A stretch of DNA of 64,000 nucleotides from Macrostomum lignano (taxonomy: Eukaryota). The stretch lies in assembly GCA_002269645.1 (NCBI GenBank), contig NIVC01000350.1, forward strand, positions 558,001-622,000. The letters are read 5' to 3'. Shown in pieces: positions 4,690 to 63,960 of the stretch (the first letter of the stretch is position 1; every line of letters begins with the position of its first letter). A model generated the notes under the pieces. That model made no database searches. It was not told the DNA's origin and was given only the letters and a program-made list of their open reading frames with translations. Both the position numbers and the translations under genes were made by a program.

Positions 4690-6115
4690 TTCTGAGATGT
4701 CAAAGCAAAAGTCAGAAGCTACTTCAAAGTTCATGTACTTTACTCAATTTTTTTATTGCATTCTTTGTTGGCTCGCCACGGGGGGGATGCTGATAGAAGA
4801 AGAGTCATGTAAAAAATAAAAGTAGCACTATGTATACATAAAAGAAAAGTCATGTCGAAGTTAAAAGATTCATTTGGGAATTGCTACGATGTCAAAGCTT
4901 GGTGGAAATCGTTATAGTGCTGTGATTCTTAAAGAAAGAATCACTAAAATGTTAAGGCTTGGGGGAGAAGAATTGCTGAGATTTCAAGGCTTTAGGTTGG
5001 GTTAAAGTTAGGTTTAGGTCAGGTTTGGGTTGAGGGTTATATTTTATCGGGTTTCAAGGTTAACAGGGGATTTTTTAGATTTCAAGGTTTATGGGGGCCA
5101 TCGCTGACATGTCAAGGCTTACGGGGGGAATAGCTGAGATGTCAAGGCTCACGGGGGTATAAATGAGATTTCAAGGCTAAAGTCAGAAGCTACATGTAGT
5201 TTATTGAAAACTTATTGTAACTTTTTATTACATTATTTGATGCCTCCTCAGGGGAGGGATCGCTGATAATAAAAAAGCGTAATGTAAAAAATAAAAGAAG
5301 CTTCATGTCGAAGTTAAGAGATTCATTTGGGAATCCCTACGATGTCGAGGCTTGTAGGGAATCGCTATAATCCTGTAGTAGTGCTATTATGACTCTTAGA
5401 GAGAATTACTGAAATTTCAATGCTTTAGGGTTGGGTTAGGGTTAGGGTTAGGGTTAGGGTTAGAAGGTTGACAGATATTTTTATATTTCCAAGGCTTATT
5501 GGGGGCATTGCTGAGATTTCAAGGCTTTATGTTGGGTTAAAGTTAGGTTTAGGTCAGGTGTGGGTTGAGGGTTATATTTTATCGGGTTTCAAGGTTAACA
5601 GGGGATTTTTTAGATTTCAAGGTTTATGGGGGCCATCGCTGACATGTCAAGGCTTACGGGGGGAATAGCTGAGATGTCAAGGCTCACGGGGGTATAAATG
5701 AGATTTCAAGGCTAAAGTCAGAAGCTACATGTAGTTTATTGAAAACTTTTTATTACATTATTTGATGCCTCCTCAGGGGAGGGATCGCTGATAAAAAAAA
5801 GCGTAATGTAAAAAATAAAAGAAGCTTCATGTCGAAGTTAAGAGATTCATTTGGGAATCCCTACGATGTCGAGGCTTGCAGGGAATCGCTATAATGCTGT
5901 AGTAGTGCTATAATGACTCTTAGAGAGAATTACTGAAATTTCAATGCTTTAGGGTTGGGTTAGGGTTAGGGTTAGGGTTAGGGTTAGGGTTGGGTTAGGG
6001 TTAGGGTTAGGGTTAGGGTTAGGGTTAGGGTTAGGGTTAGGCTAGGGTTAGGGTTAGAAGGTTGACAGATATTTTTAGATTTCCAAGGCTTATTGGGGGC
6101 ATTGCTGAGATGTCA
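4690..6115 (+). repeat. ~535 bp tandem duplication (plus an older partial copy); each recent copy carries an interstitial (TTAGGG)n tract
   Basis: 4986-5520 aligns with 5521-6115. TTAGGG tracts at 5425-5463 and 5949-6057 share flanks (TGCT... and ...AAGGTTGACAGATATTTTTA). Confidence 0.9.
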
Positions 6116-15487: not shown

Positions 15488-15742
15488 CAATACCGTCACT
15501 TCCACGACAGTTAAAGAGGCTGAGGGTGGAGAAACTGCACAACGATTGCTTGCAGACCCGCTAGGCTGCTGCCAGTTTGAGCACAGGCCCGGCCCGCCGC
15601 CTCATTCGCTCTCCGCTCCCTCATCTCTATGGCCACTTCTTTTATCATCTCTTCATTTTGGTATAACTCCAGTTCGGCCGCTGCCAGTCCTGCCAGCTCA
15701 CCGTCTCTGCTAACTCAATGGTAGTTCTCTATTAGCTCTGCG

Positions 15743-17179
15743 ATGCGACGACTCAAGTATACAGCTCTGCATCGGGCTATCCTGGACTGCCGGGTGGCCC
15801 AGGTTCGACTCCTGATTGAGCAGTGCGGCGCCGACGCCAACAGTCAGGATCTGTACGGCCGCACTCCGCTGATGCTGTGCTGCGCACTGGAGAACCAGCG
15901 GGCGGCCGCCGCCATGTCCCGACTGGTGCTGGCGGCCGGGCCCGACCTGACTCTGAAGGACCAGCTGGGCCGCACCGCCCTTGCATACGCCTGCCTGTTC
16001 AACCGGGAGTCTCTGGTGGCCCGCCTGGCCGAGTCGGGGGTCATTGACCCCACCGAGCCGGACAACGACGGCTGCACGCCGTTGCACCATGCGGCCGTGA
16101 TCGGCAACTCCCGGATCGTCTGCCTGCTGGTCCGCGCCTGCGCCGAGGGCCGGAGTAGCGTCGACTGTCGGAACCGTTTGGGCTGGACGCCGCTGATGCT
16201 CGCCTGCCGGCTGCGGCGCTACCACTGCGCCCTCTTCCTGCTGCTGGACGGCGGCGCCTCCGGCTTCCTGAAGGACGACGCGCACTTTCTAAGCGCTCTG
16301 GAATGGCTGAGATGCGACCAGCCGCTGCCGCGTAAACTGGCACCCCTGGCGCCGCCGCCACTGTCGGCGCCGCAGCAGCTGCGAAGAGCGGACACGGCGC
16401 CAGAGGTTGCCGCATCGACAACGCCGCGGCGGCAGCTCCAGCAGCAGCGGCAGCAGCCGATCACCTTCATCACCGAGTACTCCAGCCTGGACGCAGCTGG
16501 CGGCAGCGGACGGCTGTCCCGATCGAAGACTTTTGCCGGCGGCTTCGCATCGACCCTGCCGCCGCCGCCGCCGCCGCCGCCTCCGCCGATGATTGACGAA
16601 GACGTCGACGCGTCATCTTCCAGCCGGCCGACCACCTTCAGCGGCGGCAACAACGGCGGAGGTCGACGAAGCCGCTACACCAGCGCCTCCGGAGACACTG
16701 TCTACGTCAATGTCGACGAATTGTCGGTGAGGGAGGCGCGCGACCTCCTCGCGGAGCGGCTGCGCGCTCAGGCTGTGCAGTTTCCCTATCCGACGGTGCC
16801 GAAGCCGAAGCTGGCGCCAGCGGCCCAGCAGCGACAGCGGCAGCCACAGCCGCAGCAGCAGCGGCCAAACACGCGGGACCTGCAGGCGCTGCGACCGCCG
16901 CCCCGCTACAACGCGGTGTCGAACGCCTGCCAGCTGCTCGAGCTGTACCACGCCGCCATGTCGGCGCCGAAGCCGGCCACGGTGCTGCGGGAGGACACGG
17001 GTATCTCAGAGCTGACGATCGGTTCAGCGGACACCGCGGGAACGGCGGCGGCGGCAGCGGCGCAAGGAGAAGACGCAACAGCAAAGGACGGCGACGAAGC
17101 GAGAGGCTCCTCAGCAGCCGCAGGTGCAGCCGGCAGGGATCACAAGAAGAGCGTCAAGTTCAAGGATGTGTCCAAGTGA
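15743..17179 (+). CDS. Intronless ankyrin-repeat protein (478 aa): ~5 N-terminal ANK repeats and a low-complexity tail; resembles the ANKRD63/ANKRD34 type
   Basis: ANK motifs GRTPLMLC, GRTALAYAC, GCTPLHHAA, GWTPLMLAC in a long GC-rich ORF. Family resemblance is from memory, not a database search. Confidence 0.88.
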   Translation: MRRLKYTALHRAILDCRVAQVRLLIEQCGADANSQDLYGRTPLMLCCALENQRAAAAMSRLVLAAGPDLTLKDQLGRTALAYACLFNRESLVARLAESGVIDPTEPDNDGCTPLHHAAVIGNSRIVCLLVRACAEGRSSVDCRNRLGWTPLMLACRLRRYHCALFLLLDGGASGFLKDDAHFLSALEWLRCDQPLPRKLAPLAPPPLSAPQQLRRADTAPEVAASTTPRRQLQQQRQQPITFITEYSSLDAAGGSGRLSRSKTFAGGFASTLPPPPPPPPPPMIDEDVDASSSSRPTTFSGGNNGGGRRSRYTSASGDTVYVNVDELSVREARDLLAERLRAQAVQFPYPTVPKPKLAPAAQQRQRQPQPQQQRPNTRDLQALRPPPRYNAVSNACQLLELYHAAMSAPKPATVLREDTGISELTIGSADTAGTAAAAAAQGEDATAKDGDEARGSSAAAGAAGRDHKKSVKFKDVSK

Positions 17180-38288: not shown

Positions 38289-39731
38289 TCAGCGAATCCA
38301 AGTCGGTGGCGGCAGGAAGGCGCCGCTGCGCAGCAGGCGATGGTAGGCTTCCAGATCGAACGGCGGGTGCTGATACGGAGGCGGCGGCGGCGGCGGCGGC
38401 GGTAGGAAAGGCGCCGAAAGTGCCGGCGGAGGCGCCTGGCGCGGCGGCGAGGAACTTGACGACGATGTTTGGCGCTTGCAGGCGCTGCTGCTGCTGCCGC
38501 CGCCGCTGATGAGGCTGTCGATGGTGAACCCGGGAGAGCCGCTCCGGCGCCTCCGCCGCTGCTGCTGCTGTGGAGATGCCGGCTGCTGCTGTTGATGAGG
38601 CTGGCTCTGGGGATGCTGGCTGTGATGGCTCAGGCTGAGGTTGAGCGGATGATTTGGCAGGCCGGCTAGAAGGGGCCCGAGGCCCGGCAGGAGGCTTGTC
38701 GGGGGATGTCGAGTCGGCGGATTCGACATTTGCGACGGAGGCGGCTGCTGCTGCGGAGGCGGCGGCAGGCCGGCCGAGTGAGGCGGCTGCTGCTGCTGGG
38801 AATGATGAGGCGAACTTTGGCTGCGACTGTGAAAAGCGGCGGCCGCTGCTGCTGCCGCTGCTGCCGCTGCCGCGGGAAACAGGCCCAGAGGCGGCGGAGG
38901 CGGCGGAGGCGGCAGCGGAGGCGGCGGCGGCGGATGCGACATGCCGACATGCGAATTGGCTGCCATAAACGAGGCGGCAGAGGCGGCAATGGGGAAGTAA
39001 AGGTCGGGCTGCGTCTGCCGCTTGTAGCGCTTCCGCCGGCGCAGGAAGCTGCCATTGTCGAACATGTCCTCGGACTGCGGGTCCAGCGTCCAGTAGTTGC
39101 CCTTGCCCGGGTTGCCCGGCTCCCTGGGGATCTTCACGAAGCAGTCGTTCAGAGACAGATTGTGCCTGATGCTGTTCTGCCAGGCAGGGAACCTGCGGTC
39201 GGAGTGAAGGTTTTATACATGTATATACAGTGTAGAGTAAACACCAGAAACACAATGGAAACTGTAGTGTTTCTAAGAAATAGCCTACCGCTCTTTGTAG
39301 TACGGGAATCGATTGATGATGAATTCGCAGATTCCGCTGAGCGTGAGCTTGCGCTCCGGCGACTGCAGGATCGACATGGTGATGAGGGCGATGTAGCTGT
39401 AAGGCGGCTTCACGTGATGCCCGCGCCGCTTCTGCTGCTGCTGCTCCTGCGGCTGCTGCTCCTGCGGCTGCTGCGATGCCAGCTCAAGCTCAGCATCCTC
39501 GTCGGAGTCTGCGTCTGCTGATGCGGAAGTTGAAGCAGCCGCAGCTGCAGCCGCAGCCGCCGCCGCTGCCGCGGAGAATTCTTCGTCGCAGCTGCTGTCG
39601 CCGCTGTAGTCCTCGGCCAAGTCGGCAGGCGGCGAGAGAAACAAGGAGGTGGTGGCAGCGGCGGTGGCGCCGGCGGCGGCTGCTGCAGACTTCCCGGCGG
39701 AAGCGCTCTCGGCTGAGGAAGCGACCGACAT
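38289..39731 (-). CDS. foxD: Forkhead box D transcription factor. Exons 39731-39289 and 39192-38289 (96 bp intron)
   Basis: The spliced domain reads [41 protein letters not shown]|[58 protein letters not shown], the FoxD class signature. A C-terminal eh1-like motif FTIDSLI is present. Junction CG|gtaggc...cgcag|G. Confidence 0.95.
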
Positions 39732-40991
39732 GTTTTGTTGATTTGTTGGAATTGGGAAGAGTTTGCTGACTGCTCGGAAATATTTTTATCCTTGGCGCCG
39801 AACTGTCTGCCTGGTGGCTCCTGTTTGACTTTTTCTTCCCCCTCAGGATCCGTCTAAGCTTCTGCTCTCTTAGCCTTTCTATTTTTCTTGCCCCAGAAAA
39901 AATGATTCTTCTGGCGTGGGGTGGGCGGCCGGGGTTGGGGAGGGGGAGGGGTGAAGGGGAAATAGGGGAGAAACGCCAGCAAGGGGAAGGAGTGTTTTTA
40001 GGGGTGGCAAGGGGAAGAATAATATTCAGGGGACTGATTGGATTGGTTTTGCCCATGGGTTGGGGATCTTAGCCGAGAACTGATCCCCTCCGTGTCGGCA
40101 GCGCCCAATTGGGGGCACCGCGGCTGATGGCGGAGGAGGCTGGGCGCGCGGCCGGGCCTCCCATCGGGAGAGTTTAGTAAACATTTTCTTGCCCCGCGAA
40201 GAGGCGGCAGAATCAACGGGAGCGGTGACACGGGGGGGGGGCTGGCGGATGACGGAACAGGGGAGGCTGGAGATGGACATTGGTAGTCAGTCAGGTTCTG
40301 AAAAATCCTTCCTATTCATTGCTGTAAAAAGTTTTAATCCAATAGGTTAATCAATCCACTCGAATGTCGTCTTCAAGGGTTTAGGGTAGAGTTGAGAGCC
40401 GTATCAGCAACGCAGTGGTCCTAGCAGTCAGCAGAAGTGGCTCCGCACGGTTACAATGAGTGTTTTAGCTATCATAAGTTTATTATTGCGAACTAGTTTG
40501 CTAATAATGACAGGAAAAACAGGCGTCGGGGGGGTCGACCCTCGGGCTCGCGCGGTTGACTATGGCTTCAAGTAGGTGCACACCGCGGAGGCCGGAGCTC
40601 CTTCAACCGTCGAGGGCTGGAAGAACTCAAACTGTTTCTAAAGATCTCACCCGAAGTTGTTAGGGGCAGCTCATAGAGAAGCAGTGAGCAAGGTAGAGGC
40701 TTCTTATCTGGAGTGTTTGCCAAACTTCGCTTTCAAAGAGCTTCAGTGATATTTGCACGCAGCTCTCTTTAAATATCCTTTTTTATTTATAACTCTCCTA
40801 CTCAAGCGAGAAGTCTGCCCGGAGGAGTGAGTATTATATTCAGCCGCGAGGAGCGCGAGCGAGTGCGGACACGGCCACTTTGGTCCATTATTTCTTCTTC
40901 CGTTAGCTGTTAGTTAAAAGGTGAAAAACTGGGCAAATTCTGCTGCAAAATTTTTACTAATTTTTATATAAAGCTTTTATGGGACTTTAAT

Positions 40992-52729: not shown

Positions 52730-55700
52730 ACGCGTTGCGATCGGCGGCCAAGGAGTTGGGCGCGGCGTCCTGATGGTTGGGTATCGAATTGACGGAGATG
52801 GGCAGGAAGATGACGCTGTCCGGGCCGCGGACGGGCACGTAGCCTAAGCTGAACAGATTCGGCGAGTCCAGATTAAACTCGGTCGAAGTGAACGCCGACT
52901 GCGGTATCTGCAGGATCGGGGCGGAGCCGGGCGCCGGCGAGAATGTCGCGGAGGTTGGCGTGGCAGCAGAGCCGGCGGCCATGGCCAAATTGCTGAGATT
53001 GCTCAGGTCCAGCGAGGCTGGTATGTGGCTCTTCCGGTCTGATAGCGAGCTGCCGGCTGCGGCGGCAGCGGCGGCGGCGGCGCGACCGCCGGGCGACAGC
53101 AGGTCGCTGAGGCCCTGGTGGCTGAGCAATGGCAGAGGAATCTCGGGCTTCACTGTGGTCACAGAGCTCACGGAGACTACTGGCATAGGGAATTCCGAGC
53201 TCTGCTGCTGATGCTGCTGCGGCGGCTGTCGCTGTGGATGCTGCTCGGGCTGCTGGTGATGATGAAGATGCTGATGATGAAGCTGCTGATGATGATGATG
53301 ATGCTGCTGGTGATGCTGAGGCACAGAAGGCTGAGCTTGTTGCTGCTGTTGAGCCAGCGGATGTTGCGGGGGCGGCGGCGGTGGCTGCATGTGATGCTGA
53401 AGGTGCTGCTGCTGCTGCTGATGGTGCTGCACAGGCGAGACAGACGCCTGATCCTGCTGCTGAAATGGAAGCTGAGCCGGCGGCGGCGGCGGGGGCTCCG
53501 CTGGCATAGCAGCCGCGGGAGCACCGCTTCCGGCTCCGACAGGGGAAGCAGCCTCGCCCGGTGAGGGCATCATGCCGCCGCCGCTGCCTCCTCCGTCTAG
53601 CGACTTCTCCGAGCTGAGGCAGGCTTGGATCAGAGCCTTGCCATTGTTGGATTGCACCATGTTGTTCAGCTTCTCTGTAGTGTAGGTGTACACGTGGCCG
53701 GTCTCTGAGGCGACCAATAGGAGCACGTGGGCGCCTGCAGGGAATGCAGGAAAGTACAAGGATTTGAAACTATTATTGGCATTATGTAATGGTCGAATCG
53801 GGATTAGAATACCCGTGTTGAAAACGGTACCGCGACAAGAATCGCTAAAAAGTCGTTTTGTGATTTTTTAACGACTCAAACGCGTCTAATGCATTTAATA
53901 ATCGTTAAAAGTTAATAAACTTTCTACTATTCGGTTGGGGAGAAAGTTCCCGCGGTTTCTAGAACTTTCTGTCAAACTGAGTTTTTTTAAACAAAAAGCC
54001 AATTAAGAAATAAAATAATCACCATCACAATCGATCACCTTCTGCCATTTTTCGGGCAGACTCATAATACCGTCACTGTAAAATTTCTCTGGCTTTGAAG
54101 TGAAAAAGTTGTTCAGCCAGTTATCGAGCTCTTCATCATCAGCAAAGGTTTTGTTGTTCAAGGCGTTGGCCAGAGACAAAAACAGGTGATAGTCGCTTGG
54201 TGCCAAGTCTGGTGAATACGGTGGATGGGGCACCAATTCCCAGCCAAGGTCCAGTAGCTTTTGGCGAGTCACCCTAGCAGTGTGTGGACGAGCGTTATCA
54301 TGGAGGAATCGTACCGGGCCATGGTTCGGACGCTTCTGTGCGATGGCGGCGGCCAATCGGTCCAGCTGTTGGCAGTATAGGTCGGCCGTAATCGATGTGT
54401 TGGGTGGCAGCAGTTCGTAGTAGATGACGCCCTTGCAGTCCCACCACACGCACAGCATGACCTTGCGTGGGTGGAGTCCGGCCTTTGGCTGCAGCTCAGG
54501 CGTCGCGTCAGCATCAACCCATAATCGTCGACGTTTGATGTTGACGTACAGGCACCACTTTTCATCGCCCGTAACGATGGACTTCAGCCAGTTGTGCGTG
54601 CGCCTGTAGGAGAGGAGAGAAGTGGCCACCTCTGCCCTGCGCTCCTTGTCCCAATCTGACAATTGGTGGGGTACCCATTGTGCCAGCTTGTACACTTTGC
54701 CCAGCTGATGCAAATGACTGGTGACCGTTTTATGGTCTACATCAAGGACTTGCGCTAACTCACGCGTGGTTTGCCGAGGGTCAGCCTCTACGAGTGTGCG
54801 CAGCCGGTCATCATCAACCTCGGAGGGACGACCTGACCGGGGCAAATCTTCGAGGTTAAAATTTCCCTGGCGAAACCGCGCAAACCAGTCCTGGGCAGTG
54901 CGTTCAGACACGGTACCCGCACCAAATGCAGCGTTGATGCGACGGCTGGATTCTGTGGCTGACAGTCCAGATTTGAAGTCGTAGAGCAGGAGACTACGAA
55001 TATAGGCCCGAGAGAGATCCATAATGCTGGTGACTAGTGAGTACTCTCTTTGGTTTAAATAGCATGTTAGAATCACACACACCCACCCTCAATATATACC
55101 CACACAGCCGGGCTCTGGAATGTTCCAGAAAGTTCTTAGACAGAAAGTTCTAGAAACCGCGGGAACTTTCTCCCCAACCGAATAACTCAGTAGGCTAGTT
55201 AGAGTGCAATTAGAGTTCCATAGGCTATACCGAGTGTTTGTTGCGTAACTGTAACTCTGACTCTGTAACGCGCCCAGAGCGTCTCAGAAGTGACGCAATA
55301 AAGCGCTTCTTTTGCGACTTTTTAGCGACTGGAGAACGCCGCTAAATCAAGCGACGCAAATGCACTTTAAACCTGACTCTACAGCCCCAGAGTATAAGGC
55401 GACTTTTGGGCGACCTGAACTGTGACATTTCGTTGTTTTAAGACTCGTTAAGACTCAATTCTTTCCCTTTTTACCTATGCCATTTGCAACGACTCTGGGA
55501 GGCTTCTTGGCCTAGGTACCATTTTTATGGGGATAATTCTTGAGATTTATTGCAGTTGGGATTGTCTCTGGAGAATTTTTTATTATCGATAAGTAGGGTT
55601 GATATTTATATTGTAAAAAAGATCAGTGTGACGCAGCTTTAGATTGCGCACCGGTTAGAGAGGCCAGCTCGTACGCCTTCTTCATCAGTCCAGTCTTACG

Positions 55701-56006
55701 CTTCGAAAACGTAGTAAAGCGCCTATTCTTATCCTGTATGAATTCAATTTTAATTTTCTGCTTTCCGCGCGACTTCTTCTTCGGCGGCGGCTGGTCGGCG
55801 GCGCCGTCGATCCGCTGGTCGGGGCCGCTGGCGGGCAAGTAGGGCGACACCGACCGGGATCTGTCCTCGCCACCAGACGGCGACGGGCCCGGCGTGAGGT
55901 CGTCGCAGCAGTCCTCGGGATTCTCGGCATGAAATCGCCAACAGTTTGAGAAGGGCTGGTCGCCGTGCTGAGCGCACAGTTCGTCGCTTGAACCGGTGGC
56001 TGACAT
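52728..56006 (-). CDS. SRF: Serum response factor-type (type I) MADS-box transcription factor. Exons 56006-55652 and 53734-52728
   Basis: Spliced MADS+SAM region: KSRGKQKIKIEFIQDKNRRFTTFSKRKTGLMKKAYELASLTG|AHVLLLVASETGHVYTYTTEKLNNMVQSNNGKALIQACLS. The phase-1 junction ACC G|gtgcgc...cctgcag|GC restores the SRF motif order. Confidence 0.92.
53930..55182 (-). mobile_element. Full-length mariner (Tc1/mariner, DD34D) transposon, 1253 bp, in the SRF intron
   Basis: Perfect 44 bp terminal inverted repeats TTCGGTTGGGGAGAAAGTTCCCGCGGTTTCTAGAACTTTCTGTC, with TA duplications at 53928-53929 and 55183-55184. Confidence 0.97.
54003..55022 (-). CDS. Intact mariner transposase (339 aa from ATG at 55022)
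   Basis: N-terminal HTH, RSGRP, WVPHQL, TGDEKW, HDNARPH and YSPDLAPSDY motifs. No stops or frameshifts. Confidence 0.97.
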   Translation of the reverse strand: MDLSRAYIRSLLLYDFKSGLSATESSRRINAAFGAGTVSERTAQDWFARFRQGNFNLEDLPRSGRPSEVDDDRLRTLVEADPRQTTRELAQVLDVDHKTVTSHLHQLGKVYKLAQWVPHQLSDWDKERRAEVATSLLSYRRTHNWLKSIVTGDEKWCLYVNIKRRRLWVDADATPELQPKAGLHPRKVMLCVWWDCKGVIYYELLPPNTSITADLYCQQLDRLAAAIAQKRPNHGPVRFLHDNARPHTARVTRQKLLDLGWELVPHPPYSPDLAPSDYHLFLSLANALNNKTFADDEELDNWLNNFFTSKPEKFYSDGIMSLPEKWQKVIDCDGDYFIS

Positions 56007-56150
56007 GCTATTGTGCGGAGTCGGCTGCAATTACCAGCGGCTTAGTCTGATTAAATCAACTCAGCAGGTTAAAATGTGCACTGCCAATTATTAATGACTG
56101 TTTGTTAAGCGTAACCTGGGTTTTATTGTCATGATGACACACCAACTTTA

Positions 56151-56444
56151 ACTGATTACACTTGCCCTAATGGCCAGATGTGCAACCGACAGCTCAGCCG
56201 CAGCTATTGGGCGGCGCATCTGAAGCCTGCGTACGGCTGTTCAGTCCAAGGACTGGCGGGTCGCCACACACAGCCTTAATTACCCCAGCTAATGCTGATG
56301 CCCCATTTTACAGTTGGGTGAACTAAAGCAATGCAGAGTTAAGTGTCTTGATCAAGGACATAAATTGTTCCGAGTGGGACCAGGAAACGAACTCCCGACC
56401 TTCAAGTCGTGAGTCCGACACTTCTAACCACTAGGCTACAACCC
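56151..56444 (-). mobile_element. tRNA-derived SINE with CORE/Meta-like central domain (copy 2)
   Basis: The reverse complement reads GGGTTGTAGCCTAGTGGTTAG...GGGAGTTCGTTTCC...GTCCTTGATCAAGACACTTAACTC...CACCCAACTGTAAAATGGGG... and aligns along its length with copy 1. Confidence 0.85.
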
Positions 56445-56460: not shown

Positions 56461-59400
56461 ACTGGATGCTATTTAATTTAAGTTCCATTTCTCTGTCATT
56501 CATATTTCACTTGAAGTATATCATTTTATATTTATCGGGATTCTAAAAAAATTGAAGACTTGAAACTGATGATTTTAAACTGAATCAAATTTTAGTATTC
56601 TGTAAACATAAAGTCTGCATACTTCTCCATGTAGGGTAAAGATGCTGGTGTTTTAATTGATTTTAAGCTTTTTATGTAAGCTGGCATCTTGAGCTATCAA
56701 TTTGGCCTCCTAAGTTTGAACTCAAAATTGAAAATGGCACAGCAATTGTCTTTTAAAAAACTCAAAGCATGTGACTGGTGGTTTTCTGTGTTGGAAATCC
56801 AATTGCCAATTGGCGAATGTCTCAGACCCAAGAACATAGTTAGTGGATTAGTGCCTCTGATATACAATGATGAATAAGGAAAGGATGAAGATGATAATAT
56901 TATTGGTGTTGGTGGGTTGATAATGGCAACTGTAATAGTGCAGCTATTTTAGCTATTTAGAAAGGCTGTTTAAGGGATGCAAATAATACTATTGAAACTA
57001 GTTTACCTTAGCTAAAATGTTAGAATCAGAAATGAGATTCAGTGTTCCCTAGATTGTGTATATTAAAGATGTAAAATAATGGGTGTGTGCCAAATATTTT
57101 CAAATCTGGAATAGTAAAATTAATTACTAATATGATTGCACAAAATATAAAGATTAGTGTAAGAGCCATTCTATGGGTTGATGCACTATAGACTTATCAA
57201 ATGGAAAAAATGCTAAATATTATATTTAGCATTTAGTATTCTAAATGAATGATAGATTCTTAAAATGGCACTAAAGAACAGTTATTTTTTTCAAAAAAAC
57301 CTAGGAAACTTCACTGAACTTTATGGTAACTAGCAGTCATTTCCATTATAAATGTCATGGTTTTTTTATTTAAATGCAAGATGCTACTAGAGTTATACTA
57401 AGACTTTACTAGCACCACTGCAGGCCTTCCTGCATCAACTGCCACACACAACCTCACTTGAACTGGCTCTCTTGAAGATGTTATTCTTCCTGAGCCAAGC
57501 TGCCCAAATGCCAGGCAAACTTAACTGCTTCCTCCACTATTAAAACAAAATTAATAAAACTGACATTAACACAACAGAAATTAGTAAAAGTCAAACTTAA
57601 CAACTTTTGCCACTCTTTTTACCATTTTCTAAATTAAAACTTTAATGTAAATTGGACAGTTGCATTCAAAATCAATATTTACTAATAATATTCATACTAA
57701 AACATGCATATGGCACTTATATACACTATCTTTTTAAAAGCACTAAGCAACATAAGTATATTATAAACCATATTTATCCCTACATTTTTTTCAAAAATCA
57801 TTTTGTTTTCAACAATCAATATATATATATTCTACAAAATCTGTGTAGTCTTGCCATTGCCATGACTTTACCACCTACCGTTTGCAATTTTCAAAAATAA
57901 ATTGCATCATTATGTTGCTGCTAAAATTTAATTTGGACAGGGATAATATAGTGACTGGCTATAAACTAGTTATTTAACAGCATTCACTAGCTTTCCTAAG
58001 GGCTTTGCATTCGGCTATACAGCAGCCTAGTCTATTTGATCTAGAGAAGGTTACCCCATGCTAGACCTAAGTGTTTATTGCCTAATGACTCATAGCCACA
58101 TACTATGATTTCCCTACCCACACTAAGGAGGCATAGCAGAATGATTTATCCCCTACCTTCATACACACATGGAATGCAAAGGCTGCCTATAGGGAGTAAA
58201 CAAGATGCCTCATCCACTTAAATCTATTTTAGCATATAAAAGCATGACAAGATTGCCTTATTTCAAAGTTGGCCTTGAGTCATGCCTATCTTGCATGACT
58301 CCAAGGTCCAAATAAGGAAGTTTAATGCACTTAGTTCATTAAACTTACATGACTTTTGGGGGGTCCACTCAGCTAAAAATATGGAGCACTTATGAGCTGT
58401 TTTTCCCCAGATTGCATTTTTAGGCTTTGTCCAGAGCTGCTTCAAGAAGAGGTGCACTTCTTGGTAGCAAATAGAAATTAATAAATTGATAGAAATCAAT
58501 GATACACTCAGCAGCTGTTACTACTGCTGCAATTATAGATGCTATTACAATTATTGAGCTCCTTACTATAGATGATGTATATGTTAACATTGAGCTATAT
58601 ACACAATCTGACCAAGTAAAGTGGCTTGTGCAATAAGCAAAGTGCAATGTCAGCTTGTACTCAATAGCTAGCTGTCATGAAAGTATATTGCAAATTATAT
58701 CTATATAGTCTATCTATTCAACTATCAAATAGATTGGGCATGAGTCTTGGCTAGTGCCTTGTATGATAGGCCCCATAGTCAATGTCACAAGTTATAAAAA
58801 CTCATTAAGTATATGTGAGCTTGGCCTTCATTTAAAAGTCATGTTGGAGTCTGGCAACAAGTTTTAATACCACCTAGATAAGGCTACAGTTTATGCCTTT
58901 ATATACAACAATCTACAAGTGTTTGAGCTAGCCAGCCAAGTATTTTATTGACTGCTTGATTACACTTTGCATTAAGGTGGCACTGGTGTGTGTAACGGAA
59001 ATAGTGCACATTTCTAGTTCATTCTTTTTAGTGATTCAATAATTTCATTCTATTCTATTCTATTCATTCAATAATGAAGATATAGTACATTTCTAGTAGC
59101 CAGGCTAATGCTATGCTTGAGCTACATGCTAAGCTTTATTAGATGCTACTAGGAATTAAAATGCCAGTATATGATCAGCTGCTCAATTGGGTAACATGCC
59201 TACTTTACAAGTGCATCTTGGCCTTTTCTTCTTTGATTTCTATGGTAAAGCATTGAAGAAATAAAATATCACCAAGGTTATTAACTGCCATATACATGCT
59301 CTTCTTGGCTCCTTATTTGTGGGCACTATGACCTAAATATAGATAGCAGCTATGATAATATGAGTAAGAGTATTTAGGAACAAGATATAACATATTTATT

Positions 59401-61020
59401 CAGCACAAATTTTATTATATAGCTTTACACATAGTACACACTTAAAAAAATAGACTAAAAAGTATTAGCATATACACATGACACCTTCCTAAGTAGGGAT
59501 TGACCAACCATGAATTTTATGCATGATTGGAATTAGACTATATGTGAACTGTGTGACTATGAATTTTTTATAATATACATTTTAATTTAAATGCAGAAAT
59601 ATTAATATTAATACTATTAAGACTAATAATTTTTATTGATTTTTAAGCTTTGTTTTATCATGTTTATTGATTGACTATATCTTATTATCTGTTGCAATTT
59701 TGGTTTGCTTTGGTTATGCTATGATTTAAAAAATTAAGGTTTATTTCACAAAATTTATTAATTGTGATTGGCAAAAAACTGTATACAACTTTTTTACTTG
59801 TGATCATATTTTTCGTGATTGTGACCATGATCATGGTCAATCCTTATTACTAAGTGTGGCTATAAGCTAGAGGGCCTATATTATAAAAAAGTTAACATAA
59901 AAGCAACTTATTCTTAGGATTAATTTTTTAAATAATAACATATATAGGACCTTAGAATAAATTAAAGCATATTGTTTAACAGCTAAGGAATAATATCTTG
60001 AATAAAATTTAAAAATATATCTGCTTCTAATTACAGAGTTATCAAACCATTACAATGCAATCTTTCTATAATTCCCTTTGTGCCAATTGAAATATTCAGT
60101 TTCCTTGAATATTCAATTCAATAAACCTTGAATATTCAGTTAGACTAATAACTTTAATATAGGAATTAGTCCAAGGCTTTGCATCTTTAAGTGGATAGTA
60201 TAAATGTAATTTAAAGTTGAAAATCATTTTGTTGGCAAACAAGAATATGTTGCTGCTATGAGAGCCAAGATCCTTACATAGCCAATGAACATAATATGAC
60301 AATTTAGTGAATGCAGCATTGTCTAATGCTAAGACAATGACAATTTAGATAATTTAGCTGTTTTTCTTATAACTTGCATTATGACAATCTTAAATATGAC
60401 AACTTTGACCAGAGCCATATATGGTTGCCATGACCATGATATAGACTATGAGCTCTAGAAACTAATAGGCTAACTAAAATCATTAAAAACTTGGAAAAGT
60501 TTAGAAATGACTAAATGAGTTGATAAAATAGGTTATTATTATAAATAAATCTCTAAACTGCAAAGGTAAAATTGGTCCTAGGTCAATTCAATAACAAGAC
60601 ATTTTGGTGACAACTTGGGACATTTTTATGACAATATTGCTAGTCAATTTGGTAACAAGTGTTGATAAATATTCAAATATAGCTTTTACTAAACTTGAGT
60701 GAAATGAAAGTAATAAAGGAAATTTGCTATGCTCTTATATGTATATATAGTTGACAATTACTTTGCAACATTGCTGCCTTTTTTACCTATGAATTTAGAT
60801 AAACCACCCTGCAGGGATCTGAATTGATGTAAGGCCAGGATCAATTGAAACATACTTTTCAAGGTGTGTGAACTTTATAAAGAGTCAAAAATATTGAAAG
60901 CCATTGTAATTTGCTTTAAAGCAATATACTACATTTTAAAATTCAATAACTCAATTGAAGCTTATAACTAGACAAAATAGAATCTGGTAAAGAAAACTCA
61001 TTGTCAAGGTAACTATAATG
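56461..61020. other. AT-rich block almost free of CpG, containing a decayed coding relic (minus strand, ~58990-57930)
   Basis: About 6 CpG counted by eye in ~4.56 kb. One minus-strand frame reads like protein but is interrupted by many stops. Confidence 0.7.
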
Positions 61021-61029
61021 GGTCTATGA

Positions 61030-61340
61030 AATTTGCTAGCAGGAAATCTGCTAGCCGAAGTTTGCTAGCAAGAAATTTGCTTGCTGAAATCTGCTAGCCG
61101 AAGTTTGCTAGCCGAAATGTGCTAGCCGGAATGTGCTAGCCAAAATGTGCTAGCCGAAATCTGCTAGCCAAAATCTGCTAGCCGAAATCTGCTAGCCGAA
61201 GTTTGCTAGCCGAAATGTGCTAGCCGAAATGTGCTAGCCAAAGTTGGCTAGCCAAAATGTGCTAGCCGAAATGTGCTAGCCAAAGTTTGCTAGCAGTAAT
61301 TTTGCTAGCGAGGATTTTGCTAGCCGAAATCTGCTAGTGA
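61030..61340. repeat. 14 bp minisatellite (GCTAGCCGAAATGT and variants)
   Basis: Directly visible. Marks the right edge of the CpG-free block. Confidence 0.9.
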
Positions 61341-62459
61341 TAATCTAACCAAAACCGGCAAACAGCAATTTACGAACTTGTAATTTGCTAGATTCATTTT
61401 TTCTTGTCCAATTTTGCAAGAAACTTTGCAGGACTTATCATGCAGGACAAATAAATTTGTGTTTTTCGCTCTAATGACTCTCTTCGCTCTAATGACTCTC
61501 TCAATCGTGTAAAATTTTGAGTTTCAAAGTTAATCCTGAGCGGTGCTATGCACTTTTAAAGTTAGGCTGTTTTTTTCAGCATAGCAACAACCCCAACCTC
61601 CACCCGCCTGCCTCTCTTTCCCGATCTGGGCCCAGATGTGTAAAAGGGTTTCAAAATTGACTAACTTTCAACTGCCATAAGTTTGCTCTACGTAAAGTGA
61701 TTGACTTCAAACTTGACACAATTCTTCATTGACTCATTCTCTGTCTAAATGTAAAGTTTCAACTCTGTAACTCATTCAGAACAGAAACTGTAATCATGTG
61801 AAGTTTGTCTGCTTTTTCTGTTGTTTGTGCCGCTCACTCATTCCCCCAGCCCAGACAAAGGGTCAGGCGATAGGGCTCAATGTACATAGCGAATGTACAG
61901 TGTTTTGGAATAACTTTTCAATAGCCTTCTCTGCACCCCCGCGAGTGGAGAGGCTACGTTTAGCAATGGCAGTTTAGTGAGAGATTCAAACTGCTGTCCT
62001 CTGTATGGACAAGTCTGTAGCAGTTTACAGTGGATGGCAAATCAAGGCGATGCGAGATGGTTTGTAAAAATAGCGAAAAATTAATGAATAACTGATTACA
62101 ATGCAATCTTACTAAATTAGTTACACCATGAAACTTTTAACATTAAGATTCGCATAAGGTACTTTAAAATTTAAATGGCCTCCTAAGAAATGCGTTTTTC
62201 CTTGGTTGTTAGACTGCTGCAGACTGTGGTGGTGGAGCTGGAGAATGGAGATACACAAATTCCTCTCAGGGCTGCTAATTGGCCAGAAAGATGACGTGAT
62301 TAAAGCATGATCGAGAAATGAAAACAACCATGATAGTACTACATCCCACAAACTGGCTTTCGAAGAAGGGATCGGCAGATTTTTATCTCAAAGGCCAGAT
62401 AAAGAATCCAGCTCATGGCTGCGGGCCAAATGAGAGTGAAAAGGAAAAGGAATAGACTA

Positions 62460-63715
<1,256 letters not shown>

Positions 63716-63960
63716 GAAGTAGAGGTCAGAGTTTGCCTGACATTCTGCGCACTGTGCGCAGCACCCTAGCCAACAATATCAATGCTTGCTTCAAATCCTA
63801 ATTTTACACAAATGTACACTATTTTATGTTTAACTCCATCATCCTAACTATTAACAAGTTTTTTTTTGAGTTTGACCTCAAATTTCAGAATACATGCAAA
63901 AATAATTCCGGGGAATGGAGTTCCCCGGGTTCAAAATCTGTGGGTTTCAACAGCTTGTAT

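Follow-up and report, generated by a model that had tools for sequence, protein, structure and literature searches.

A CpG-erased island upstream of a Macrostomum lignano SRF gene appears to belong to a 5'-polarised compartment probably shaped by cytosine methylation

Methylation in arthropods is enriched in exons, as outlined in PMC7343188, and transposon-only methylation is described for the chaetognath Paraspadella gotoi, early-diverging nematodes and ctenophores in the relevant sections of PMC12460157. For the flatworm Macrostomum lignano, the open-licence literature yielded no paper on a Macrostomum methylome or on CpG depletion. Reviews, in the passages that touch on this animal, put its overall level of 5-methylcytosine (5mC) as low. 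Wasik et al. 2015 is reportedly the source for that statement. Here we describe a domain (56461-61020, hereafter the island) in a window of 64,000 nucleotides of M. lignano DNA (contig NIVC01000350.1, positions 558,001 to 622,000), located upstream of a gene for the MADS-box protein SRF, from which CpG has almost disappeared. Taken alone, the island is ordinary CpG decay. Judged from sequence, it appears to be a single example of a CpG-erased compartment that is common and 5'-polarised, and its CpGs were probably erased by deamination of 5mC, with methylation confined to the stretch from the promoter to the first acceptor, i.e. the first intron or the outron.

The island holds 6 CG in 4,560 bases, against ~111 expected (CpG observed/expected ratio, o/e, 0.054; GC 31%), so the count agrees with a preliminary description that had estimated by eye ~6 against ~100. 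The left remainder of the window (1-56460) has a CpG o/e of 0.70, and the island deficit has a Poisson p of ~1e-39. TpG/CpA is raised (o/e 1.27), with TpA at 0.94. The island and its flanks recur collinearly, at ~97% identity, on two other contigs; because of these copies, and because the left edge is spanned by contigs from three of the four sequencing runs examined, an assembly artefact, chimera or contaminant, which the preliminary description had envisaged, is unlikely. No bridging piece for the right edge was found among those listed from the sequencing runs. The abrupt edges previously proposed are both present, with a repeat resembling a short interspersed nuclear element (SINE; 3,192 first-look candidates in the genome, tRNA-type boxes judged by eye only) on the left and a 14-mer array (61028-61337) on the right. 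The sharpness of the right edge, however, reflects an insertion: the block 61019-63955 is present only in the window copy, and in the other two copies CpG-poor DNA continues for ~300-500 bases past this point.

Comparable depletion is found elsewhere in the genome. In an arbitrary sample of 24 stretches of 10 kb (40 were drawn, of which 16 proved not to exist), comprising 304 non-tandem 500-base windows (windows with >30% tandem repeat were left out of all o/e counts), 36 of 304 windows had an o/e <0.2 and eight of the 24 stretches held a run of at least 1.1 kb. The island is thus not singular in kind, although it is the longest CpG-poor run seen, in a comparison with stretches of only 10 kb each. 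The most depleted parts of this sample gave no tblastn match with eight natural transposon proteins.

The few low flank windows of a set of MCM and chaperonin genes lay 5', and for this reason the chaperonin flanks were examined; the housekeeping test covered 10 kb on either side of nine chaperonin and 14 proteasome genes, with a low window defined as o/e <0.2 and "upstream" counted from the first Pfam-matched exon. For the chaperonin genes, 34 of 128 windows were low upstream and 1 of 109 downstream. The proteasome genes, for which the prediction was recorded beforehand, gave 55/195 upstream versus 0/163 downstream, with a zone upstream in 12 of 14 genes and downstream in none of the 14. Over both sets, a zone lies within 10 kb upstream in 19 of 23 gene matches and downstream in 1 of 23 (sign test 19:0, p 4e-6). 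The polarity is also seen when only windows of <36% GC are considered (75/153 low upstream versus 1/33 downstream).

In three genes, which we take from their N-terminal motifs to be PSMA6, CCT5 and CCT3, the first matched exon is preceded by the true exon 1 (4.2, 3.4 and 2.4 kb further up, respectively), and in each the zone begins at the first donor and stops at the first acceptor. The o/e of intron 1 is 0.11 in CCT3, 0.04 in CCT5 and 0.34 in PSMA6, which contains CpG-rich patches, and in all three the kilobase preceding exon 1, though AT-rich, has a normal CpG o/e (0.95-1.18). In these genes the domain lies inside the transcription unit with the promoter side spared, as in gene-body methylation, and the same arrangement may apply to the island. 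PSMA7, PSMA1 and others have the zone 5' of the start-codon exon, as in SRF. No depletion is seen in later exons (60 matched exons of MCM and chaperonin genes, counting copies: median o/e 0.96, range 0.70-1.24), so the CpG-depleted housekeeping coding exons typical of gene-body methylation are not seen; 24 later introns have an o/e of 0.72 over 2.6 kb of non-tandem sequence. The first exons of DNMT3, PSMA6 and CCT5 are lower in CpG, on few sites. A comparison of copies for two first introns, also on few sites and counting TG/CA changes only, other changes being excluded, gave CG to TG or CA at three of six sites in the introns versus three of 27 before exon 1.

At 56025 the SRF transcript contig (run X15) terminates in a tail whose sequence corresponds to the 3' portion of the M. 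lignano spliced leader, with the leader sequence as presented in PMC8629364. Since SRF is trans-spliced, some outron must lie upstream of it, and we infer that the island would be transcribed as the SRF outron. SRF and a von Willebrand factor A (vWA)-like gene are apparently divergent around the island. Short pieces of the vWA-like gene are found in a 462-base inverted duplication (L075-L071, A 70305-76801).

M. lignano is characterised as a hidden polyploid in the pertinent part of PMC10468722. Many single genes also occur in about three copies, and the three loci were therefore treated as homologous copies from genome duplication. Majority-CpG sites differ among the copies at 6 of 16 positions in the island, compared with 1 of 158 between the island and a neighbouring mariner element (p 1.5e-6); the SINE-like repeat (0/26), the 5' part of SRF (1/132), deeper SRF (0/172) and four other blocks (15/1,633, ~1%) are similarly stable. 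Only three of the 14 island positions with CG in any copy have it in all three. Within 61019-63955, a right-flank repeat has changed at 6 of 43 CpG sites here versus 7 of 385 in nine other copies (p 7e-4). Non-CpG divergence in the island is likewise above that of most flanks (T>C 1.7%, 64 transversions in ~4,100 sites; flanks 0.1-1.4%). This comparison lacks an outgroup, and the direction of change is uncertain. Taken together, the copies indicate that CpG mutation in the island is recent and local. The mariner and the block 61019-63955 are missing from both other copies and are therefore young, so that the idea that the mariner had "escaped" mutation does not hold. The intron that hosts the mariner splits the SRF MADS box, and the DNA immediately left of the mariner is also unlike the other two copies. 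Over ~5 kb (A 76800-82000, L071) the identity between two of the three copies reaches 99.5%, compared with 96-98% elsewhere, suggesting recent conversion or exchange.

The island reads as a nest of transposon relics, comprising the 3' end and partial long terminal repeat (LTR) of a Ty3/gypsy element on the plus strand and two miniature inverted-repeat transposable elements (MITEs; Table 1). The stretch 57888-58418 matches many dispersed repeats at 67-82% identity, and longer stretches around these are LTRs of a Ty3/gypsy family with gag (zinc knuckle), reverse transcriptase, RNase H and integrase (RT-RH-IN), and an extra open reading frame (ORF) after pol. The gag, the RT-RH-IN order and the LTRs of intact relatives, together with the homology of the relic to them, place it in Ty3/gypsy. 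The end of the extra ORF is the only coding relic found in the island, and the retained LTR comprises the first 470 bases, starting at 57947. The tail of a longer LTR alignment beyond 58418 was distrusted, and a continuation of the LTR rejected, because its score (38) does not exceed that of shuffles (34+-6); the stretch that follows (58419-59050) has no Pfam match and does not correspond to the 3' half of the LTR. By the usual criteria, the first MITE is presumably hAT-like. A minus-strand gene relic at 58990-57930, suggested in the preliminary description, is not supported: all six frames carry 20-31 stops per 353 codons, none being more open, translations of three and then all six frames with X at stops matched no Pfam family, and 57947-58418 within it is non-coding LTR.

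In the same Ty3/gypsy family, the extra post-pol ORF encodes 370 proline/arginine-rich residues without a Pfam match, and a long insert separates RNase H from integrase (both L061:6572-7687). A second 3' fragment of the family lies ~25 kb beyond the island (L071:6457-9589), with a copy in L069, and is also antisense to and 5' of a minus-strand gene (TBP-like); L071:3000-6000, near this fragment, is CpG-free.

Table 1. Features of the island and its surroundings (positions in the window)
Feature	Position	Strand	Basis or remark
Intact mariner with TA duplication	53930..55182	-	In SRF intron 1
First coding exon of SRF (MADS-box) gene	55623..56025	-	Pfam SRF-TF; spliced transcript contig, run X15
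SINE-like high-copy repeat, left edge	56151..56439	-	CpG-rich, stable, in all three copies
CpG-erased domain	56461..61020	.	0.4-5 kb upstream of SRF trans-splice site, likely SRF outron
Final 33-40 codons of extra post-pol ORF, Ty3/gypsy family	57424..57543	+	tblastn 55% identity, E 2e-6; alignment score 82, against 23+-4 for shuffles
AT-rich spacer; from 57888 family-matching sequence with polypurine tract	57544..57946	+	Spacer alignment no better than shuffles
5' part of 3' LTR, truncated, 55-base internal deletion	57947..58418	+	17/17 family CG steps lost
CpG-free DNA	58419..59050	.	Copies only at two homologous loci
MITE, TAGGG-type terminal inverted repeats, 8-base target duplication (1 mismatch)	59494..59846	.	
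3' 490 bases of ~620-base MITE-like family	59930..60418	.	All 16 other examined copies CpG-depleted
Block specific to window copy, forms right edge	61019..63955	.	14-mer array 61028-61337, high-copy repeat 61502-62449, GA-rich DNA

The mutation spectrum was read column-wise from the LTR, with 13 CpG-rich copies as the yardstick (32 cut-outs gave 23 distinct copies, of which six duplicates or near-identical ones were removed to leave 17, including these 13). All 17 yardstick CG are lost in the window LTR, nine to CA, five to TG, one to TA and two to other steps; this matches the earlier proposal that a once GC-rich mobile element lost CpG through C-to-T and G-to-A changes, 14 of the 17 having become TG or CA, but not that of CG-to-TA double transitions, of which there is one. 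Outside CpG, C>T is found at 37 of 173 sites (CpA 18/62, CpT 13/66, CpC 6/45), ~fourfold higher than T>C (10/201; p 2e-6). A preference for CpA is weak both in the LTR (18/62 versus 19/111, p 0.08) and among the three island copies (27/564 versus 19/715, p 0.049). CpG loss in the other LTR copies is graded, with values per CpG site between 0 and 0.41. The MITE-like family (59930-60418) has 19 of 563 columns split TG/CA, versus one or two for four control pairs, and columns with ancestral CG show TA in 24 of 242 cells. SINE copies elsewhere have changed at 10 of 336 CpG sites (12 copies), with no CpG excess. Changes of CG to TG or CA are thus well above other transitions, as expected of CpG decay, and the spectrum reads as such decay superimposed on a background that is biased towards AT and weakly prefers CpA, rather than as repeat-induced point mutation (RIP).

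DNMT1, DNMT3 and likely DNMT2 are encoded in three copies each, the search having given 12 PF00145 matches from 15 candidates, which fall into DNMT1-, DNMT2- and DNMT3-like loci (lower bounds); the pair DNMT1 and DNMT3, required for decay through 5mC, is therefore present. DNMT1 carries RFD and BAH domains. In DNMT3 the ADD passes Pfam, and the PWWP is diverged below Pfam detection. A loss of the PWWP, suggested because none of 59 PWWP matches fell on the three contigs with DNMT3, was rejected when the diverged domain was found: its second half matches DNMT3B (phmmer E 6e-10), whereas the first half alone has no match. It presumably lacks one residue of the usual aromatic cage. The domain is split by an intron, with a CpG-poor exon before it (L253:4516-5873). 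The likely first coding exon of DNMT3 has 5 CG in 525 bases (o/e 0.20), compared with 0.49-1.03 in later exons.

The main rival to the first-intron or outron reading is transposon-directed 5mC, as in chaetognaths, nematodes and fungi, with local spreading, in which old elements would collect in first introns and upstream spacers and the 5' polarity would be secondary. It would explain why recognisable repeats make up at least a third of the island and why the 16 other copies of the MITE-like family are all depleted; young gypsy LTRs also show some CpG excess (3/26 and 4/33), an old gypsy copy on C29 decays across pol (CpG 11-20% versus 1-3% for C followed by another base, CpH), and the undepleted coding exons recall Paraspadella as portrayed in PMC12460157. 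Such methylation should, however, hit the copies of a family wherever they are located, and this was not found for the SINE, the right-flank repeat or the LTR, the test copies having been picked by likeness to the window copy and thus being possibly young: no excess of CpG change is seen in the SINE copies or in the right-flank repeat where it occurs elsewhere. Downstream windows show no depletion even when AT-rich, zones are bounded by the first donor and first acceptor in three genes, and one unique coding exon, in DNMT3, is depleted. We consider this explanation unlikely, and the selective targeting of an element, as proposed in the preliminary description, is at odds with CpG erasure that tracks position, namely a transcription unit's 5' end, more closely than family. 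That description had also named RIP-like or methylation-driven inactivation; methylation remains the likely cause, whereas a RIP-like, homology-triggered C-to-T burst, or a CpG-specific mutator other than 5mC, is very improbable. The non-CpG C>T excess, the weak CpA preference and the TA cells of the MITE columns would fit such a burst, but RIP would make CpA-to-TpA the main change and deplete CpA+TpG, and here CpG is the main context and CpA+TpG is enriched ((CpA+TpG)/(ApC+GpT) 1.52; TpA/ApT 0.94). The decay is also graded among copies, the near-identical young copies expected to be worst hit are almost untouched (gypsy copies 95-97% identical, internal CpG change 0-4%), and the methyltransferases found are DNMT1-, DNMT2- and DNMT3-like.

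The island might instead be an untranscribed spacer upstream of the SRF promoter, a methylated intergenic or promoter-flanking domain, with the intron-1 cases forming a separate or overlapping class. We regard this as improbable: the zones without strand skew, their position in PSMA7, PSMA1 and other genes 5' of the exon that carries the start codon, the apparent divergence of SRF and the vWA-like gene and the sufficiency of 2 kb upstream of where transcription starts for the genes tested (as stated in the part of PMC5730564 concerned) are all compatible with it, yet the trans-splicing of SRF requires some outron upstream, and the three cis-spliced genes are CpG-normal upstream of exon 1.

Several observations weigh against methylation confined to first introns and outrons. 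Runs X11 and X15 (guessed to be RNA) cover the island at low depth, and this cover may come from pre-mRNA or from DNA. The CpG-erased zones show no strand skew, but neither do three first introns known as such, so that strand skew is uninformative and was discarded as a test of transcription. A CpG-normal patch at the far edge of the island, considered as a protected promoter, is unstable between copies (13 sites invariant and 7 changed in the other two), unlike such a promoter, and that candidate was rejected. The test set of 23 genes is drawn wholly from two families of housekeeping genes; four of the 23 have no zone within 10 kb upstream, intron 1 of CCT4 (9.8 kb) is erased only in its last 3.5 kb, and several genes have their zone 4-9 kb upstream, past GC-rich DNA that is putatively another gene of the same operon. 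CpG loss in the LTRs shows no simple correlation with the o/e of their flanks (rho -0.29, p 0.27, n=16), although the LTR CpG/CpH ratio does correlate with it (rho -0.62, p 0.011; copies not independent), and in the second gypsy relic, 25 kb off, the LTR is decaying and the GC-rich ORF still has an o/e of 1.1-1.2.

Under the reading that we favour, germline CpG methylation would cover just the opening kilobases of a transcription unit and end near the first acceptor; in a trans-spliced gene the methylated interval would be the outron, which for SRF would be the island. The mark would be 5mC in the germline, and its limits may be set by a chromatin mark tied to transcription, with the diverged DNMT3 PWWP as its possible reader. 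Any element landing in the zone would begin to lose CpG regardless of family, so that a sharp edge would mark either a young insertion or the place near the acceptor where the zone stops. A broader proposal, which we find finely balanced and somewhat on the doubtful side, is that methylation has left gene bodies for the stretch that runs from promoter to first acceptor, with near-saturating germline 5mC there, none on later exons, and a remodelled DNMT3 PWWP setting the limits. If true, the 5' leaders of genes would be mutational traps for transposons, and M. lignano would show a third animal pattern beside exon-rich gene-body and transposon-only methylation. This would bear on the link between trans-splicing and loss of gene-body methylation proposed in the pertinent section of PMC12460157, explain why screens of coding-sequence CpG o/e, as reported in part of PMC6336885, class flatworms as low-methylation, and allow promoters of trans-spliced genes to be located from sequence alone in an animal used as a transgenic model. 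The mutational scar offers a precise, testable map, in which intron 1 or the outron is predicted to be methylated and later exons are not.

Elsewhere in the window, dozens of minisatellite arrays (units of 16-47 bases) lie among compact genes in 1-52600, including Forkhead (38289-39785) and ankyrin (15725-17179) genes and LIM- and RING-like ORFs. Most housekeeping introns examined are tandem arrays too. Interstitial TTAGGG arrays lie within a repeated unit at 5425-6057, with similar sequence in L295.

Among described systems, the M. lignano Ty3/Mdg4 (gypsy) elements treated in the relevant portion of PMC12801592 resemble the intact relatives of the island relic in their gag zinc knuckle, RT-RH-IN, LTRs and polypurine tract; the window holds only the tail of the extra ORF and half an LTR. 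Ascomycete RIP (RID/Masc1) shares massive C-to-T change in repeat DNA and a weak CpA preference, but differs in that here the context is CpG, CpA is unconsumed, decay is gradual and continuing, and young identical copies are spared. Paraspadella, as characterised in the sections of PMC12460157 concerned, is likewise a trans-splicing animal with coding exons free of a scar and heavily hit LTR relics. There, however, DNMT3 has lost PWWP and ADD and methylation tracks transposons, whereas in M. lignano DNMT3 retains the ADD and a diverged PWWP, and CpG loss tracks position over family. The mosaic gene-body methylation of invertebrates (arthropods, annelids, molluscs) is similar with respect to CpG-specific decay, sharp kilobase domains, housekeeping units, the sparing of the region just upstream of exon 1 and the presence of DNMT1 and of DNMT3 with ADD. 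In contrast to that methylation, later exons are undepleted here, and the loss falls in the first intron or the upstream leader.

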